Shown: piece by piece, positions 1 through 35,009 of the stretch | Numbering within the stretch: the first letter of the stretch is position 1 | Layout of the letters: each line of letters begins with the position of its first letter | Origin: a virus | Taxonomy: Duplodnaviria; Heunggongvirae; Uroviricota; Caudoviricetes | Length of the DNA stretch: 36,421 nucleotides | IMG/VR virus record: IMGVR_UViG_2718218361_000002 | Strand: one strand, 5' to 3' | Position numbers and translations under genes: made by a program | The notes under the pieces: model-generated | Seen by the model: the letters and a program-made list of their open reading frames with translations, nothing else | Database searches by the model: none | Told to the model about the DNA's origin: nothing

Positions 1-900
1 TTAACGCAATAATGGACAATCTGGTGGTAATCGACAACGCAACGCCGCCGGAAGTATTTCAATATGAAAGTTTTGTCCGCTCAACGGTTCGCCATCAAGA
101 TTAAAAGTGATTTCGTGTGGGGCTTGTATATCAAACCACGACGAAGCGCCTTCGATAATATTCGGGTTATCTTCGTCAGATTTTAAGGTTGATACGAGAG
201 CCGGAAGAATTTCATCGCCGGTAAAAATGCGCAGTTGCAGCAAGCCATCGTTAATTAACGCGTTCGGACACAATTGCTGACCGCCACCGGCCTGACGCCC
301 GTTACCAATACCAATGACCAGGGCGTCACCTTGCCAGTGAAAGTTTTCACCGCGGATTTCACAACGGTCCGGTTGCAGAGTATCCATGCGCATTAAGCCA
401 TGAATGATGTAAGAGACGCCACCCAGCGCGGCTTTTAATTTTTCCGGCGTTTCTGTGGTAATACGCGTCCCAAATCCGCCTGTCGCCATATTAATAAAAC
501 AGGTTTGTTTGTTGACCTGCGCCATATCTATCGCAATGGCGTTACCGGCAATTGCCAGTTTCAGCGCCTTATCCAGTGCCTCAGGAATCCCTACACTGGT
601 GGCAAAATCATTGGCGGTTCCTAATGGCAAAATTCCCAGCGCGGGTATGTCATCCCCCTCACACTGAATCAACGCCGTAGAAACTTCATTAATGGTGCCA
701 TCGCCACCACCGGCAATCACCGTTGCGACGCCCAACTTCCGGGCCTCCTCTACATATCGTGCGGCATCGCCTTTCTCCCAGGTGACCCGCACATGGATCG
801 TCATTCCTTCCTCACGCAACAGCATAATTGCTTCGCGCAAGGGTAGATTGTCAGTACTTTTGCCATTAAGAATCAGTAAGCTGGCGGGAAATTCTGCCAT
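1..900 (-). CDS. yegS: lipid kinase YegS (diacylglycerol-kinase-like catalytic domain)
   Basis: 299-aa ORF, stop at 1..3 and ATG at 898..900; sequence [15 protein letters not shown]...GGGDGT matches my recollection of E. coli YegS. Confidence 0.9.
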
Positions 901-1314: not shown

Positions 1315-1632
1315 ATGAAAAAGATAGCTGCTATATCATTAATTAGTATTTTTATTATGTCTGGTTGTGCTGTGCATAATGATGAGACAAGTATCGGTAA
1401 ATTTGGTCTTGCATATAAAAGTAATATTCAGCGTAAACTCGATAACCAATACTACACCGAAGCCGAAGCTTCTTTAGCCAGGGGCAGAATATCTGGTGCA
1501 GAAAATATAGTAAAAAATGATGCAGCCCATTTCTGTGTTACTCAGGGCAAAAAAATGCAGATAGTTGACCTGAAGACAGAAGGTGCAGGATTACATGGCG
1601 TCGCTCGTCTGACATTCAAATGTGGAGAGTGA
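1315..1632 (+). CDS. yegR: small lipoprotein-like protein YegR
   Basis: ORF track 1255..1632; I place the start at internal ATG 1315 (MKKIAAISLISIFIMSGCAV, signal peptide with cysteine), preceded by GGGGGAAGGTGAG; 105 aa. Confidence 0.8.
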   Translation: MKKIAAISLISIFIMSGCAVHNDETSIGKFGLAYKSNIQRKLDNQYYTEAEASLARGRISGAENIVKNDAAHFCVTQGKKMQIVDLKTEGAGLHGVARLTFKCGE

Positions 1633-1789
1633 GAATATTTTTTGGTAAGCGTCAAACATGCGCGTTCTGGTTGTGCTTAGCCGGAACCTGTGCGAGCACG
1701 ATGCCGTTACGTGAAAGGCATCGTGCTATGAAGGGAGATTCTATCGATGTGGTCAATGGAAGACGGTGACCAGGGATAGGGCTTATGCA

Positions 1790-8168: not shown

Positions 8169-8646
8169 ATTGCCTCCTGTAAGTAGAGGGCAACTTCCAC
8201 CGGTATATGCGCTTGTTAGGTGGAATGACTTTTGAGCGAAGTCTTGCCCTGAAATAATGCTCTGTTTAAACGCAAAGTGATTTGGCATATCACCGAACAG
8301 AGAGCCGGAAAAACACAACATATAGTATGTCGTTGTTTCTAGACATACATTCTATGTTGTGTAACAAGGGCTTTGCATTAAACATGTTTGAGATTTTATT
8401 GATGTAGCTCAAAGTAAAAAACAGAGACTACGGATGATAAGGTCTTGAAAGCAATGTAAATTTTTTAAAGTTGCCAATTGCTTAAAAATGTACAGTTGCG
8501 GTATGGCGTACTTAAAAAGCTATGCATGCAACAAGTGAATGTTTTTGCATGCGCTGGGGATGTCCGTTCAGGCTGCGTGCGGTCAGGACTGGTGCGGATC
8601 CATAGTATCTATGCAACTGCATTAAAACCGCCCCGTGAAGCGGGCG

Positions 8647-8665
8647 GGCGAGGCGGGGAAAGCAC
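8647..8665. other. cos site (19-nt cohesive-end sequence)
   Basis: GGCGAGGCGGGGAAAGCAC, which I recall as the P2 cohesive-end sequence, in a GC-rich island inside AT-rich DNA. Confidence 0.7.
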
Positions 8666-8916: not shown

Positions 8917-10350
8917 ATGAAAAAGCAAAGCGAAATTAACGTAAAAAAATTAGCATCATGGAGATTTTCATTTAAAAACATTGGGTGTATCTCTACAGGA
9001 GAAATTAATGCAAAACCTTTAACGCTTTTATGCGGAAAAAATAATACTGGTAAAACATGGGTTATGTATGGGTTATATGGCTTCCTAAATATGCCATCAC
9101 CATCTTTAAAATTGCCTCAAGTTGCAAATTTTGCCAAAACTCTTCGTGAAAATGGTAAGTTTGAATTAGATGTAATTGAGTGGATAAAAGATAATTTTAC
9201 GTTAATCAAAAGAGAATTTAATAAAGATTCATCTTTAATGCTTAAAGATGTATTCAACACTAATGATAAGGAAATTTTTTCTAATTCAACATTTGACTGG
9301 GTTATAGATGAAGAATCATTAGTATCAAGTGTTTATGAAAAAAAATTGGATGTTAGCCTCGTCATAGGAACCGGCAAAAAAGAAGTAATGCTATTATCCA
9401 AAGATAAAAATAGCAATATCATACAAATGACGCTGCTAGATTCTGCTTTCCCCAGAATTGATGGGTTTATAAACTTAACTCTAAGTCAGTTATTAAAGAT
9501 AGAGTATGATGAAAGCCCAGCATTTTTAATTCCCGCAGAAAGAAATGGCTTGCACCTTTTTTTCAATGAATTAAGTTCCAGAAGAACTGCGTTATTGCAC
9601 CACGCCTCAAAAGAACAGTTCGATCTGAACTCACTATTAATGGATGTAATGAAGTCTAAGTATTCTGCTCCTATAGCAAATTACATAGACTGGCTTAATG
9701 AAATTAAGGTTAATAGGAAAAATAAAAATGGCCAATTTCATAAATTAGCAGAAGAAGTAAAAAAAATAATTTCAGGAAAATATTCAGTTGATCCTGAAGG
9801 GCAGATTTATTTTTCAACGTATAAGAAAGGTAAGACACCTGCAAGTAAAATTGAACTTCATTTATCGTCATCCACTGTTAAAAGTTTGTTTGGCCTGTGG
9901 TTTTATTTAGAGCACCAAGCAAAAACTGGTGATATTTTAATGATTGACGAACCCGAGTTAAATTTACACCCGTCAAATCAGCGAGTAATTGCAAGATTTT
10001 TAGCAAAGCTAGTTAACTCTGGTATTCGGGTTATTGTTAGTACTCACAGTGATTATTTTGTAAAAGAAATCAATAGCTTGATTATGTTGCATGGCGTTTC
10101 TGAAAATATGATTGAAAAACGAAACGCTATCATGCAGAAGCAAGGGATTAGCATCGACTCAATTTTAGACTCTAACCTAGTCGCTGCGTATCTATTTGAT
10201 AATGGCTCAGTCAATGAAATGCAGAAGTCAAATGAAGGGATTAATGCTGTAACTTTTGATGAAGTAATTAATGCCATTAATGACGATAATGATGAAATAT
10301 ATTACTCCTTGGTGGAGAATGCCTCTGATAGTGAGGATGTAGATGAGTAA
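8917..10350 (+). CDS. ABC-type (AAA_15/AAA_21-like) ATPase, OLD/AbiLi/AriA/PtuA-like, family unassigned
   Basis: 477 aa; Walker A CGKNNTGKT, signature-like LSSSTVKSLFGL, Walker B DILMIDEPE, H-loop STHSDYF; ~280-aa insertion between Walker A and B; acidic C-terminal tail; SD TAAGGA; AT-rich. Confidence 0.85.
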   Translation: MKKQSEINVKKLASWRFSFKNIGCISTGEINAKPLTLLCGKNNTGKTWVMYGLYGFLNMPSPSLKLPQVANFAKTLRENGKFELDVIEWIKDNFTLIKREFNKDSSLMLKDVFNTNDKEIFSNSTFDWVIDEESLVSSVYEKKLDVSLVIGTGKKEVMLLSKDKNSNIIQMTLLDSAFPRIDGFINLTLSQLLKIEYDESPAFLIPAERNGLHLFFNELSSRRTALLHHASKEQFDLNSLLMDVMKSKYSAPIANYIDWLNEIKVNRKNKNGQFHKLAEEVKKIISGKYSVDPEGQIYFSTYKKGKTPASKIELHLSSSTVKSLFGLWFYLEHQAKTGDILMIDEPELNLHPSNQRVIARFLAKLVNSGIRVIVSTHSDYFVKEINSLIMLHGVSENMIEKRNAIMQKQGISIDSILDSNLVAAYLFDNGSVNEMQKSNEGINAVTFDEVINAINDDNDEIYYSLVENASDSEDVDE

Positions 10351-23830: not shown

Positions 23831-25852
23831 ATGAGCACAAAATTCAAAACCGTTATCACCACTGCCGGTGCAGCAAAGCTGGCAGCGGCAACCGCGCCGG
23901 GAGGGCGGAAGGTCAACATTACCACGATGGCCGTCGGGGATGGCGGTGGTAAATTGCCTGTCCCGGATGCCGGACAGACCGGGCTTATCCACGAAGTCTG
24001 GCGACATGCGCTGAACAAAATCAGCCAGGACAAACGAAACAGTAATTATATTATCGCAGAGCTGGTTATTCCGCCGGAGGTGGGCGGTTTCTGGATGCGT
24101 GAGCTTGGCCTGTACGATGATGCGGGAACGTTAATTGCCGTGGCGAACATGGCCGAAAGTTATAAGCCAGCCCTTGCCGAAGGCTCAGGGCGTTCGCAGA
24201 CCTGCCGCATGGTCATTATCGTCAGCAGTGTGGCCTCAGTGGATCTGACCATCGACACCACAACGGTGATGGCGACGCAGGATTACGTTGATGACAAAAT
24301 TGCAGAACATGAACAGTCACGACGTCACCCTGACGCCTCGCTGACCGCAAAAGGTTTTACTCAGTTAAGCAGTGCGACCAACAGCACGTCTGAAACACTG
24401 GCTGCAACGCCGAAAGCCGTTAAGACGGTAATGGATGAAACGAACAAGAAAGCGCCATTAAACAGCCCTGCACTGACCGGAACGCCAACGACGCCAACTG
24501 CGCGACAGGGAACGAATAATACTCAGATCGCAAACACGGCTTTCGTTATGGCCGCGATTGCCGCCCTTGTAGACTCGTCGCCTGACGCACTGAATACGCT
24601 GAACGAGCTGGCGGCGGCGCTGGGCAATGACCCGAATTTTGCTACCACCATGACTAATGCGCTTGCGGGGAAGCAACCGAAAGATGCCACCCTGACGGCA
24701 CTGGCGGGGCTTGCTACTGCGGCAGACAGGTTTCCGTATTTTACGGGGAATGATGTTGCCAGTCTGGCAACTCTGACAAAAGTCGGGCGGGATATTCTTG
24801 CGAAATCGACCGTTGCCGCCGTTATCGAATATCTCGGTTTACAGGAAACGGTAAACCGAGCCGGGAACGCCGTGCAAAAAAATGGCGATACCTTGTCCGG
24901 TGGACTTACTTTTGAAAACGACTCAATCCTTGCCTGGATTCGAAATACTGACTGGGCGAAGATTGGATTTAAAAATGATGCCGATGGTGACACTGATTCA
25001 TACATGTGGTTTGAAGCAGGCGACAACGGCAATGAATATTTCAAATGGAGAAGCCGCCAGAGCACCACAACAAAAGACCTGATGAATCTTAAATGGGATG
25101 CTTTGTATGTTCTTGTCAATGCCATTGTAAATGGCGAAGTAATATCAAAATCAGCAAACGGCCTACGTATTGCTTATGGTAATTACGGATTCTTTATTCG
25201 TAATGATGGTTCAAATACATACTTCATGTTGACAAACTCCGGTGACAACATGGGGACTTATAACGGATTAAGGCCATTATGGATTAATAACGCTACTGGC
25301 GCTGTTTCGATGGGGCGTGGCCTTAATGTTTCAGGGGAGACGCTTTCAGACCGTTTTGCTATTAACAGCAGTAATGGTATGTGGATTCAGATGCGCGATA
25401 ACAACGCTATCTTTGGGAAAAATATAGTTAACACTGATAGCGCTCAGGCGTTGCTTCGCCAGAATCACGCTGACCGCAAGTTCATGATAGGTGGACTGGG
25501 GAACAAGCAATTTGGCATCTACATGATTAATAACTCAAGGACAGCCAATGGCACCGATGGTCAGGCGTACATGGATAATAACGGTAACTGGCTTTGTGGC
25601 TCGCAAGTTATTCCTGGCAACTATGGCAATTTTGATTCCAGATATGTGAAAGATGTTCGACTTGGTTCACAGCAATATTATGGAGTGAACAACTGGCAAA
25701 CATGGAATTTCCAGTGCCCGTCAGGTCATGTATTGTCTGGTATTAATGTTCAGGATACAGGGTCCAACTCTGCCGATAATATAGCGGGCGTTTATTACAG
25801 ACCCGTTCAAAAGTATATAAATGGCACCTGGTATAATGTAGCGAGCGTTTAA
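23831..25852 (+). CDS. H: tail fiber protein
   Basis: 673 aa; conserved N-terminus [25 protein letters not shown]; Asn/Gly-rich C-terminal region. Confidence 0.9.
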
Positions 25853-30382: not shown

Positions 30383-32830
30383 ATGAGTAACAATGTAAAA
30401 TTACAGGTATTGCTCAGGGCTGTTGACCAGGCATCCCGCCCGTTTAAATCCATCCGCACAGCGAGCAAATCGCTGTCGGGGGATATCCGGGAAACACAAA
30501 AATCACTGCGCGAGCTGAACGGTCAGGCATCCCGTATTGAGGGATTCCGCAAGACCAGTACACAGCTCGCCGTGACTGGTCATGCACTTGAAAAGGCTCG
30601 GCAGGAGGCCGAAGCCCTTGCCACACAGTTTAAAAATACCGAACGTCCGACCCGTGCTCAGGCGAAAGTGCTGGAATCCGCAAAGCGTGCGGCGGAGGAC
30701 TTACAGGCGAAATATAACCGCCTGACGGATTCCGTTAAACGCCAGCAGCGGGAACTGGCCGCTGTGGGAATTAATACCCGCAATCTTGCACATGATGAGC
30801 AGGGACTGAAAAACCGTATCAGTGAAACCACCGCACAGCTTAACCGTCAGCGTGACGCACTGGCGCGTGTCAGTGCACAACAGGCAAAACTTAACGCAGT
30901 AAAACAGCGTTATCAGGCCGGAAAGGAACTGGCCGGAAATATGGCCTCAGTGGGCGCTGCCGGTGTGGGGATTGCGGCGGCGGGAACGATGGCCGGAGTT
31001 AAGTTGCTGATGCCCGGTTATGAGTTTGCGCAGAAAAACTCAGAATTGCAGGCTGTGCTCGGTGTGGCAAAAGACTCCGCCGAAATGACCGCACTACGCA
31101 AACAGGCGCGCCAGCTCGGCGACAATACCGCCGCCTCAGCGGATGATGCGGCCGGTGCACAGATAATCATCGCGAAAGCGGGTGGGGATGTTGATGCCAT
31201 TCAGGCGGCAACGCCGGTCACGCTGAATATGGCGCTGGCGAACCGCCGCACGATGGAAGAAAACGCCGCCCTGCTGATGGGGATGAAATCCGCCTTTCAG
31301 CTTTCAAACGATAAGGTCGCTCATATCGGGGATGTTCTCTCCATGACGATGAACAAAACCGCCGCCGATTTTGACGGCATGAGCGATGCGCTGACCTATG
31401 CCGCACCTGTGGCAAAAAATGCCGGTGTCAGCATTGAAGAAACCGCCGCAATGGTCGGGGCGCTGCATGATGCAAAAATCACAGGCTCAATGGCGGGGAC
31501 GGGAAGCCGTGCCGTGTTAAGCCGTCTGCAGGCACCGACGGGAAAAGCATGGGATGCACTCAAAGAGCTTGGCGTGAAAACCTCAGACAGTAAGGGGAAT
31601 ACCCGACCAGTATTTACCATTCTGAAAGAAATGCAGGCCAGTTTTGAGAAAAACCGGCTCGGTACTGCCCAGCAGGCTGAATACATGAAAACTATTTTCG
31701 GGGAGGAGGCCAGCTCAGCCGCCGCCGTGCTGATGACTGCCGCCTCAACTGGAAAGCTGGACAAACTGACCGCTGCGTTTAAAGCCTCAGACGGGAAGAC
31801 TGCCGAGCTGGTAAATATCATGCAGGACAACCTCGGCGGTGACTTTAAGGAGTTTCAGTCCGCTTATGAGGCGGTGGGGACTGACCTGTTTGACCAGCAG
31901 GAAGGCGCACTGCGTAAGCTCACGCAGACGGCCACAAAGTATGTGTTAAAACTCGACGGCTGGATCCAGAAAAACAAATCACTGGCGTCAACCATCGGCA
32001 TTATTGCCGGTGGTGTACTGGCGCTGACTGGCATCATTGGTGCCATTGGCCTCGTAGCCTGGCCGGTTATCACCGGCATCAATGCCATCATCGCGGCAGC
32101 AGGCGCAATGGGGGCAATCTTCACGACGGTTGGCAGTGCTGTTATGACGGCCATCGGGGCGATTAGCTGGCCGGTTGTGGCCGTGGTGGCCGCCATTGTC
32201 GCCGGGGCGTTGCTTATCCGTAAATACTGGGAGCCTGTCAGCGCATTCTTTGGCGGTGTGGTGGAAGGGCTGAAAGCGGCATTTGCGCCGGTGGGGGAAC
32301 TGTTCACGCCACTTAAACCGGTGTTTGACTGGCTGGGTGAAAAGTTACAGGCCGCGTGGCAGTGGTTTAAAAACCTGATTGCCCCGGTCAAAGCCACCCA
32401 GGACACCCTGAACCGTTGCCGTGACACGGGCGTCATGTTCGGGCAGGCACTGGCTGACGCGCTGATGCTGCCGCTTAATGCGTTCAACAAACTGCGCAGT
32501 GGTATTGACTGGGTACTGGAAAAACTCGGTGTCATCAACAAAGAGTCAGACACACTTGACCAGACCGCCGCAAGGACTAATGCCGCCACGTATGGCACCG
32601 GTGGTTATATTCCGGCGACCAGCTCTTATGCAGGCTATCAGGCTTATCAGCCGGTCACGGCACCGGCTGGCCGCTCTTATGTGGACCAGAGTAAAAACGA
32701 ATATCACATCAGCCTGACCGGTGGTACTGCGCCGGGGACACAGCTTGACCGCCAGTTACAGGATGCGCTCGAAAAATACGAGCGGGATAAACGTGCGCGC
32801 GCCCGTGCCAGCATGATGCATGACGGTTAA
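30383..32830 (+). CDS. T: tail tape measure protein
   Basis: 815 aa; coiled-coil N-terminal half, Gly/Ala-rich hydrophobic middle. Confidence 0.95.
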   Translation: MSNNVKLQVLLRAVDQASRPFKSIRTASKSLSGDIRETQKSLRELNGQASRIEGFRKTSTQLAVTGHALEKARQEAEALATQFKNTERPTRAQAKVLESAKRAAEDLQAKYNRLTDSVKRQQRELAAVGINTRNLAHDEQGLKNRISETTAQLNRQRDALARVSAQQAKLNAVKQRYQAGKELAGNMASVGAAGVGIAAAGTMAGVKLLMPGYEFAQKNSELQAVLGVAKDSAEMTALRKQARQLGDNTAASADDAAGAQIIIAKAGGDVDAIQAATPVTLNMALANRRTMEENAALLMGMKSAFQLSNDKVAHIGDVLSMTMNKTAADFDGMSDALTYAAPVAKNAGVSIEETAAMVGALHDAKITGSMAGTGSRAVLSRLQAPTGKAWDALKELGVKTSDSKGNTRPVFTILKEMQASFEKNRLGTAQQAEYMKTIFGEEASSAAAVLMTAASTGKLDKLTAAFKASDGKTAELVNIMQDNLGGDFKEFQSAYEAVGTDLFDQQEGALRKLTQTATKYVLKLDGWIQKNKSLASTIGIIAGGVLALTGIIGAIGLVAWPVITGINAIIAAAGAMGAIFTTVGSAVMTAIGAISWPVVAVVAAIVAGALLIRKYWEPVSAFFGGVVEGLKAAFAPVGELFTPLKPVFDWLGEKLQAAWQWFKNLIAPVKATQDTLNRCRDTGVMFGQALADALMLPLNAFNKLRSGIDWVLEKLGVINKESDTLDQTAARTNAATYGTGGYIPATSSYAGYQAYQPVTAPAGRSYVDQSKNEYHISLTGGTAPGTQLDRQLQDALEKYERDKRARARASMMHDG

Positions 32831-34568: not shown

Positions 34569-34787
34569 ATGTTTCATTGTCCTTTATGCCAGCATGCCGC
34601 ACATGCGCGTACAAGTCGCTATATCACTGACACGACAAAAGAGCGTTATCACCAGTGTCAGAACGTGAATTGCAGCGCCACGTTCATCACTTATGAGTCG
34701 GTACAGAGATACATCGTGAAGCCGGGAGAAGTCCACGCCGTGAGGCCGCACCCGTTGCCGTCAGGGCAGCAAATTATGTGGATGTAA
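34569..34787 (+). CDS. ogr: late-gene transcription activator Ogr (zinc finger)
   Basis: ORF track 34506..34787; start at ATG 34569 (MFHCPLCQHAAHARTSRY...CQNVNCSATF); 72 aa. Confidence 0.9.
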   Translation: MFHCPLCQHAAHARTSRYITDTTKERYHQCQNVNCSATFITYESVQRYIVKPGEVHAVRPHPLPSGQQIMWM

Positions 34788-34824: not shown

Positions 34825-34887
34825 GTCGATGTGGTCAATGTGTGGACGTGACCAGAAATAAATCCTTTTATTTCATTGTATTACGCG

Positions 34888-34915
34888 TAAAAAATAAGCC
34901 CGTGTAAGGGAGATT
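34888..34915. repeat. attR core (lies in the 3' terminator end of cyaR)
   Basis: TAAAAAATAAGCCCGTGTAAGGGAGATT, identical to 1790..1817. Confidence 0.85.
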
Positions 34916-34975
34916 ACACAGGCTAAGGAGGTGGTTCCTGGTACAGCTAGCATTTTATGGGTTATGTTTTTCAGC
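34889..34975 (-). ncRNA. cyaR: CyaR (RyeE) Hfq-dependent sRNA
   Basis: Reverse complement reads GCTGAAAAACATAACCCATAAAATGCTAGCTGTACCAGGAACCACCTCCTTAGCCTGTGTAATCTCCCTTACACGGGCTTATTTTTT, matching my recollection of E. coli CyaR; sits between the prophage and yegQ as in K-12. Confidence 0.85.
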
Positions 34976-35009
34976 GAAACGGATGATAACCTTAATAAAT
35001 ACAGCTGTA

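Follow-up and report, generated by a model that had tools for sequence, protein, structure and literature searches.

The site at which P2-type phages integrate in E. coli is probably the right junction of an ancient Peduoviridae prophage, preserved today as a fossil throughout nearly the whole species, and the attR core of that prophage would be the attB that is used now. We analyzed a window of 36,421 nucleotides (the whole stretch of DNA under study), which holds a P2-like prophage flanked by host DNA. The original prediction had picked out three features just outside attL, namely an 11-bp inverted repeat, a 10-mer, and a 15-mer, and had read the segment 1695-1758 as the relic of an older, largely deleted P2-like prophage. 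All three features were found where it had placed them, the alignment of the 15-mer region with a phage arm argues for an older and almost wholly deleted P2-like prophage on the host side of attL, and the accompanying proposal that the attR core of this old prophage serves as attB for the resident phage was supported, while the extent had been set too narrowly, as the fossil runs from about 988 to 1817 and includes yegR. In the course of events that we propose, an E. coli ancestor would have acquired a P2/186-like phage (Peduoviridae) by integration into the 3′ end of cyaR, which duplicated the 27-nt core, and internal deletions would then have removed nearly the whole prophage. The leftovers would still lie in map order and orientation, comprising a displaced core (988-1014), a scrap of P′ arm, yegR, DNA from just before cos (1637-1694), a P arm (1744-1790), and a second core (1791-1817). 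This right-hand core would owe its intact state to its role as the functioning terminator of the CyaR small RNA, and it serves as the attB (locI) for modern P2-type phages, the resident one included. What the data show directly is homology, the order of the homologous pieces, and their occurrence across genomes, and from this we infer a single integration event with yegR as its cargo.

The present layout of the locus is that of an occupied P2 site (coordinates refer to the plus strand unless stated otherwise). Upstream of the prophage lie yegS (1-900, minus strand) and yegR (1315-1632, plus strand; an ORF of 105 aa with a lipoprotein-like product of family PF27694), and a host arm of 158 nt separates yegR from the attL core. 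The core coordinates were corrected to 27 nt, at 1791-1817 for attL and 34889-34915 for attR, the two copies being identical. The resident prophage runs with its int side first and its ogr side last. Next to attL stands its P′ arm (1818-1931, mapped from the P2 annotation), with a Cox-site region at ~1834-1907 and two Int arm-type repeats TGTGGACACT arranged as a direct repeat at 1906-1926. Its cos, the 19-nt cohesive end at 8647-8665, is an exact match to GGCGAGGCGGGGAAAGCAC, the exact P2 cos, and it provided the reference point for the cos-proximal homology discussed below. At the far end, ogr (34569-34787) is followed by an ogr-side phage arm (34788-34888), in which the P arm proper (34826-34888) carries Int arm-type sites at 34826-34853 and an IHF-site region from ~34857 into the core; this P-arm region is 95.6-99.3% identical to P2 and Peduovirus records. 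The attR core overlaps the 3′ end (terminator) of cyaR (RyeE), a small RNA gene on the minus strand (34892-34977; Rfam RF00112, 100.7 bits, E 3.5e-19), with yegQ beyond it. The 3′ half of the CyaR terminator is formed by the 27-nt core, which is contiguous with cyaR at unoccupied sites. This is the classical P2 site, and a published table assigns both P2-like prophages and the K-12 'ogr-D′' remnant to cyaR (PMC3032704 Table 2).

The host arm contains a degraded copy of a phage attachment arm. The 15-mer TCGATGTGGTCAATG at 1744-1758 is identical to 34826-34840 and was the sole exact match of at least 15 nt between the host arm (1632-1788) and the interior of the 33-kb prophage on either strand, where the chance expectation for a 15-nt exact match against the whole prophage is ~0.01; a 13-mer match on the other strand was at chance level. 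In the naming used by P2 workers, the arm concerned is the P arm, on the ogr side. The similarity extends past the 15-mer, with host GACGGTGACCAG aligning to phage GGACGTGACCAG, and when host arm and phage P arm were aligned locally, TCGATGTGGTCAATG-GAAGACGGTGACCAG paired with TCGATGTGGTCAATGTGTGGAC-GTGACCAG at a score of 38, compared to 14.8±2.2 in 2000 dinucleotide shuffles (maximum 26; 0/2000). Local alignments of the host arm with the reverse complement and with the int-side arm stayed at background. In a multiple alignment, 1744-1790 was collinear with the P arm throughout (33/47 identical), interrupted by one 16-nt gap that falls in the IHF-site region.

Mapping the relic onto P2 itself assigned it to a defined binding site. 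The GenBank annotation of P2 lists an Int 'P arm' site at 24293-24320, IHF at 24324-24357, the attP core at 24356-24382, Cox at 24399-24472, and an Int 'P′ arm' site at 24470-24496. The P-arm Int site reads TCGATGTGGTCAATGTGTGGACGTGACC, and the host relic matches this stretch from the same first base, its first 28 nt (1744-1771) corresponding base for base in the alignment to the annotated 28-nt site. The first repeat, TGTGGTCA, and its flank are identical in the relic and stand on the same side of the core in the same orientation, whereas the second is degraded, with GAAGACGG vs TGTGGACG in P2. The TGTGG(A/T)C repeats in the two arms, which had been suggested to be Int arm-type sites, agree both with the two Int sites of the P2 record and with the published arm-repeat consensus of P2-type phages, tgTGGaCa (PMC3448106), and are such sites, the pair at 1906-1926 being the annotated P′-arm site. 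Citrobacter and Enterobacter also have P2-like prophages at cyaR, with slightly different cores, and these prophages share the 15-mer and the surrounding architecture; the complete functional arm is therefore the phage version, and the host copy is a degraded derivative of it. Compared to a functional attP/attR-type arm, the relic has one repeat intact, its IHF region deleted, and a spacing 16 nt shorter, its site lying 47 nt from the core instead of 63 nt, and in contrast to the P2 P arm, no ogr terminator stands upstream. Given one intact repeat, the missing IHF site, and a distance to the core shorter than that of attP, this relic is most likely inert and probably non-functional. Among eight E. 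coli/Shigella sequences, the 15-mer was perfectly conserved in seven and polymorphic at 1/15 positions, which is not significantly lower than the 25/158 variable positions across the host arm and hence gives no evidence of constraint. Of the three features noted originally, this arm is the only demonstrable phage relic.

We found the relic to be nearly fixed in E. coli. Of 5426 complete E. coli genomes, 5371 contain the segment 1600-1817, unoccupied sites included, and at the unoccupied site of O157:H7, yegR, the relic, the core, and cyaR follow one another uninterrupted. The original prediction had named two observations that together would count against a relic, occurrence of the same sequence at unoccupied sites and a similarity to P2 arms not beyond chance; empty sites do carry the sequence, yet chance falls far short of explaining the resemblance to the P arm. 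In K-12, the relic is present and is followed on its right by a remnant that starts inside the core and continues into D′-ogrK, a P arm, the core, and cyaR. Because the relic is near species-wide and K-12 carries both, it is older than, and independent of, the K-12 remnant. The original idea, with its comparison to the K-12 ogrK remnant, names the right kind of element, but the relic is not peculiar to certain strains, and the fossil exceeds the proposal in both age and size. The cryptic P2 remnant of K-12 (yegZ/D′-ogrK-attR, locI) shares with the relic its site at the 3′ end of cyaR, the phage family, and the mode of formation, as internal deletion leaves the right end and attR in both. However, it retains a D gene fragment, an intact ogr, and a full P arm at ~95-99% identity to P2 and is confined to K-12-like strains, while the relic has no phage genes, an arm ~70% identical with a 16-nt gap, and a nearly species-wide distribution, and lies outside the K-12 remnant.

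To read the ancestral state of the site, one genome was taken for each species and searched for a 21-nt cyaR pattern, which yielded 120 loci. At 66 of these, the yegS start codon lies ~130-320 nt from cyaR, without yegR. Loci without the island include those of Klebsiella, Enterobacter, Kosakonia, Atlantibacter, Citrobacter amalonaticus, Citrobacter sedlakii, and Escherichia sp. E1V33, and in most Enterobacteriaceae and in E1V33, yegS is found ~65 nt from the cyaR terminator, again with no yegR. The empty E1V33 site reads ...GATGAAAGTCGTGAGGC/AAAAAATAAGCCTGCGTAAGGGAGATT/ACACAGGC, with the left flank GGATGAAAGTCGTGAGGC followed by the core and then ACACAGGC, where E. coli has an island of ~800 bp in the yegS-cyaR interval instead. 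Neither the empty E1V33 arm nor the Salmonella arm showed P-arm similarity on alignment. The sample of Escherichia other than E. coli comprised three lineages. The genome L101 is labelled E. coli yet represents a separate species-level cluster; its arm keeps the IHF-site region and has lost the arm repeats (40/62 identical; score 40 vs 14.2±2.0). E. albertii carries an IS-truncated P arm (41/47 identical; score 64), and in a metagenome-assembled genome (MAG L006), yegS and cyaR are separated by an insert of ~200 nt that includes P-arm-like DNA (24 vs 14.2±2.2; 2/1000). Decay therefore differs by lineage, E. coli keeping repeat 1 and having lost the IHF region, and L101 showing the reverse; in addition, a further ~170 nt that L101 and L125, a long form within E. 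coli, retain are missing from most E. coli. Other truncations at the site are a K-12 deletion from the core to gene D, one in strain E308 from the host arm to gene J, and the IS in E. albertii. Such lineage-specific losses are as expected from neutral decay of one ancestral arm, or from repeated events at a hot site.

At the left end of the island stands a decayed copy of the functional core. In the window, the E1V33-type left flank ends at 987 and gives way to AAAAAGTCAGTTCAAGTATGGAGGATT, which is 17-18/27 identical to the core, and the equivalent place in L101 reads AAACCGTCAGTCTGCATAAGAGAGATT, 20/27 identical. This decayed core (988-1014) is located exactly at the synteny break, where empty genomes have their core, and 25 of the 27 core positions survive in at least one of the two lineages (window or L101); at a fixed position, the binomial probability is ~4e-4 for 17/27 and 3e-6 for 20/27. 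We interpret 988-1014 as the attL core of the fossil prophage, which would be the original, displaced 3′ end of cyaR. To its right, 1015-1095 resembles the spacer and Cox-site region of the P′ arm in P2 attP. When anchored at the core, 1015-1054 aligned with 1818-1857 of the resident P′ arm at a score of 10 vs -3.4±2.7 (0/2000 shuffles), and the alignment over 80 nt scored 8 vs -7.2±3.8 (0/2000). The P′-arm-like DNA is significant only if anchored at the decayed core, free local alignment being not significant (182/1000 shuffles), and its arm-type repeats are barely recognisable. Given the matches of flank, core, and P′ arm, the ~800 bp at 988-1790 appear to be an island inserted at the cyaR core, with a decayed attL on one side and a working attR on the other.

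The interior of the island holds DNA that corresponds to the right end of Peduoviridae genomes. The first clue was a weak phage-database match between 1637-1685 in the window and the right terminus of phage 186, which further comparison confirmed. When the final 295 nt of 186 served as reference, scores were 43 for the window segment (shuffles 16.3±2.3), 50 for that of L125, and 70 for the orthologous segment of L101 (shuffles 18.2±2.2), with 0/500 shuffles reaching the score in each case. In a MAFFT alignment, the L101 homology extends to the cos cut site, ending in ...AAGTGGGCG at the cut. Searched against a 2.3-Gb phage database, the L101 arm matched Peduoviridae only, among them 186, SEN1, BIS20, SW9, EtG, and Midge, with matches ending at the right ends of these genomes; the best was to 30543-30623 of the 30624 nt of 186 (E 6e-8). 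The DNA preceding cos in the resident prophage (8576-8646) also aligns with this segment, whose homolog in the window spans 1637-1694 and is oriented +/+, as on the prophage map. The 19-nt cos itself was not recognisable in the fossil part of the window. Searches of the islands against the resident prophage with tblastx and blastn returned arm and cos-proximal matches only and no phage protein-coding genes (int, A, Q, D, ogr, and others). As no phage genes were found, what we claim is restricted to non-coding landmarks, the skeleton of a prophage.

Immediately upstream of the cos-proximal homolog lies yegR. P2-like phages carry a hotspot for defence and other cargo genes between gpA and gpQ, near cos (PMC13586616), and yegR stands at the hotspot position, although YegR homologs elsewhere are chromosomal and not phage-borne. 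Among the 120 species loci, yegR was found only in Escherichia and Shigella. Homologs of YegR with 47-81% identity occur in unrelated chromosomal contexts, those of 76-81% identity being paired with a lipoprotein ORF of 108-110 aa in non-phage surroundings, and none of the six contexts examined had a P2-like neighbourhood. In the E. coli long form L125, the 5′ part of this partner ORF survives as its first ~35 codons (tblastn E 5.6e-6), and the ~170-nt deletion of most E. coli falls at the partner-ORF remnant. A tblastn search of 50,697 phage records recovered yegR in two only, both apparently including host flank. We also considered a strong match to phrog_21109 as phage evidence for YegR and set it aside as probably not independent, the phage records with yegR carrying host flank. 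A Pfam search of YegR gave nothing above threshold; the family assignment PF27694 comes from a protein database. As YegR homologs are non-phage and the phage records with yegR appear to include host flank, it is the position of yegR that suggests former phage cargo.

The hairpin and the 10-mer, which the original prediction had grouped with the relic, have no demonstrable att or cos ancestry. The hairpin lies in the yegR 3′ region, and its arms, AGCACGATGCC (1695-1705) and GGCATCGTGCT (1717-1727), pair without mismatch over 11 bp; a repeat search lengthened the inverted repeat to 14 nt with 93% complementarity. Folding of the region is more favourable than that of shuffled sequences (z = -4.4); no T-tract follows the hairpin on either strand, and no terminator-like site was found in 900-2000. 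Natural variants of the hairpin are single-sided, two of three keeping G-U pairing on the plus strand, with no compensatory double changes, and the hairpin is absent from L101. A REP-like repeated element was rejected, since the 58-mer 1688-1745 is single-copy in 5415 genomes. In this haplotype only, the 10-mer AAGGGAGATT (1731-1740) is identical to the end of the att core (its final 10 nt, 1808-1817): K-12 and Shigella read AAGGAGGATT, ECONIH2 AAGGAGTATT, and GN06156 AAGGGGGATT, so that in the eight E. coli/Shigella sequences the 10-mer is polymorphic at 3/10 positions (1735-1737), and the other haplotypes are 8-9/10 identical to the core end, which is not above chance. Compared by eye, the 17 nt to its left are a poor core match and do not extend the identity. 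Being polymorphic and without a counterpart in L101, the 10-mer cannot be shown to be a core remnant, and its reading as a scrap of the core or of an intermediate core was rejected as unsupported. Judging from the chain of haplotypes, perfect identity may be derived and not ancestral, unlike in a decaying core, and it is probably a coincidence. Hairpin and 10-mer together were also tried as a decayed cos, with no significant match to 186, the resident cos junction, or L101 (best 69/1000 shuffles). By similarity, 1695-1743 is not assignable to any phage part, and the two features occupy the place of the last 45 nt before cos and of cos itself.

Several other accounts of the host arm have to be weighed against this evidence. 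Coincidence in AT-poor intergenic DNA would cover the 15-mer, the 10-mer, and the hairpin at one stroke, and it is still the best reading for the 10-mer, given the polymorphism of the latter and the chance-level identity of its variants, as well as a chance-level 13-mer on the other strand. For the P arm and the cos-proximal DNA, in contrast, chance is rejected, as no shuffle reached the P-arm score, L101 and E. albertii gave independent significant matches, the cos-proximal match was significant database-wide, and all pieces are collinear with the phage map; as an explanation of the whole, we give it practically no credence. It is equally hard to believe that the arm stems from a P2-like prophage that decayed only lately in this lineage, in the style of the K-12 D′-ogrK. 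K-12-type remnants do arise at the site, with another in strain E308, yet a recent event conflicts with the presence of the relic in nearly all genomes and at empty sites such as that of O157:H7, with its coexistence in K-12 with D′-ogrK, to the left of which it lies, and with a decayed ortholog in L101. The direction of transfer might also have been the reverse, as phages are known to capture att-adjacent DNA by aberrant excision, in which case the P arm of P2 would be host DNA. We consider this very improbable, for it is the phage copy that is complete and functional, its pair of arm repeats and its IHF site being annotated in P2, and the host copy that is degraded; the 15-mer and architecture recur in the Citrobacter and Enterobacter prophages next to different cores, and cos-proximal and P′-arm remnants would not result from aberrant excision. 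The arm-repeat consensus is, moreover, general to P2-type phages (PMC3448106).

Selection might instead have retained part of the arm, either an Int site that might aid or tune P2 integration or excision at locI or the hairpin as a stabiliser of the yegR mRNA or a 3′-end element. The conservation of the 15-mer in seven of the eight sequences, the perfect stem with its favourable folding score, and the two natural variants that keep G-U pairing point this way. Overall, however, retained function seems rather unlikely to us: polymorphism in the 15-mer is not significantly below that of the region, the second repeat and the IHF site are gone although they occur in every intact P arm aligned, L101 lacks both the arm repeats and the hairpin, and the hairpin has no U-tract, no terminator call, and no compensatory double substitutions. 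More than one element may also have been involved, with successive insertions at the cyaR core, with an element carrying yegR arriving first, for example, and a P2-like phage later, of which deletion then spared only the P arm. Since the cos-proximal DNA resembles 186 whereas the arm repeats are of P2 type, either a mosaic ancestor or two elements are needed; the site is repeatedly targeted, and the 10-mer AAGGGAGATT might represent what is left of an intermediate core. Against such nesting, every recognisable piece fits the order and orientation of one prophage map, no full third core could be detected between the outer two, and the 10-mer is not fixed, its perfect match possibly being derived among the sampled haplotypes. 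We regard nested insertions as a less likely alternative and favour the decay of a single ancient Peduoviridae prophage.

The mechanism invoked for this fossil is not new, as the accretion and decay of elements at att sites in RNA genes are well known. Islands at tRNA and sRNA genes, or tandem prophage remnants, bounded by decayed att direct repeats are an established type, and the present island shares with them a decayed and a functional att core, decay by deletion, and reuse of the intact repeat. It differs from the general type in that, at only ~800 bp, it displays four non-coding landmarks (core, P′ arm, cos-proximal DNA, and P arm) in map order, and in that its single surviving gene is nearly fixed in the species. 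We found no description of the relic in the searchable literature; an earlier mention in the 1992 locI paper or in De Lay & Gottesman 2009 is possible.

If the fossil-prophage reading is correct, the 'empty' P2 site of E. coli is not virgin host DNA, but the right junction of a prophage that had decayed to ~800 bp before E. coli diversified. With the empty site being an old right junction, the 3′ end of CyaR would have been replaced by phage-borne copies at least once, and in the lysogen studied here twice, leaving three generations of this sequence visible at 988-1014, 1791-1817, and 34889-34915. For yegR, an orphan gene present in nearly all E. coli, the reading offers a concrete and testable origin as cargo of the P2 hotspot next to cos. 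The prophage would have been dated and reconstructed from non-coding landmarks alone, and gene-based prophage finders would miss such a remnant. A bolder extension, which we put forward as a long shot, is that locI and yegR both derive from one ancient Peduoviridae prophage, with yegR as domesticated cargo of a possibly phage-related role, and that the surviving arm site still binds Int and biases integration or excision. Were this true, a phage family would have built, and would still maintain, its own landing pad.

Within one window, the 3' end of cyaR appears to be preserved in three successive generations, each as a copy of the 27-nt att core. The decayed core at 988-1014 would be the original host copy, the core at 1791-1817 the one left behind by the fossil prophage (an older, P2/186-like element), and the core at 34889-34915, which forms the present terminator of cyaR, the one brought by the resident prophage. 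The resident prophage also carries a 477-aa ORF (8917-10350) in its cargo hotspot, located directly after cos and ahead of the portal gene.

The host arm, i.e., the DNA between yegR and the attL core that holds the decayed P arm (the ogr-side phage arm) of the older prophage, showed a bimodal identity to the window across E. coli: over 1688-1745, 2359 genomes were at least 99% identical and 2523 were 90-95% identical. This bimodality points to two deep haplotypes, an O157/window type and a K-12 type, which look highly diverged for intergenic DNA of E. coli. In unoccupied sites, GGGCTTAT (1779-1786) is able to pair with ATAAGCCC of the core (1796-1803), and RNAfold predicted this hairpin within 1779-1803. 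It overlaps the CyaR terminator tail and arose through A-to-G changes when compared with the IHF-site sequence of the phage. We also observed an exact 12-nt direct repeat, TCTGGTTGTGCT, at 1360-1371 and 1666-1677, for which the chance expectation in 1.1 kb is ~0.04. The copy within yegR codes for the YegR lipobox, and the second lies within the cos-proximal homolog, where phage 186 reads TCTGGTTGTGCG.

Immediately 3' of yegR, some E. coli (7 of 40 match rows spread over the matches) and a separate Escherichia species-level lineage (L101) contain an extra ~170-225 nt, located at 933-1110 in the locus of E. coli ECONIH2 (L125). This segment, deleted in most E. coli, carries the 5' part (the initial ~35 codons) of a lipoprotein ORF with which yegR homologs are paired in other bacteria.

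Other P2-like prophages and their remnants were encountered at the cyaR site as well. In E. coli E308 (L126, 2585 onward), we found another type of remnant, in which the host arm is broken at about window position 1680 and fused to a truncated copy of the baseplate gene J from a P2-like prophage. At the same core, E. coli GN06156 (L128, about 1110-1180) harbors another P2-like prophage, whose integrase is divergent. The attL of this prophage reads ...GTAAGGGCGTTTTT in place of ...GTAAGGGAGATT, such that strand exchange would fall to the left of the final ~5 nt of the 27-nt core. In E. albertii NBRC 107761 (L057), a P arm remnant lies within 110 nt upstream of the core and matches the arm of the resident phage at 41 of 47 positions. 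The remnant begins within the second Int repeat, where a fragment of an IS3-family transposase directly adjoins it.

Inserts between yegS and cyaR extend to further lineages. A metagenome-assembled genome (Proteobacteria OH_SBB_50, L006) has a mini-insert of about 200 nt there with P-arm-like DNA, TCGAGATGGTCAGTGCGTACAGGTGGCCTGAAATGAA, and near its left end GTGGACTGGACA resembles two arm-type repeats; this mini-insert is possibly an independent prophage stripped to its two arms. In Enterobacter spp. (L009, L047, L074, L076, L077, L082, L106, L121, and L123), a ~550-nt insert occupies the same interval. The ORF it contains stops a few bases short of the att core, and the insert looks like one more lineage-specific element at the cyaR att site.
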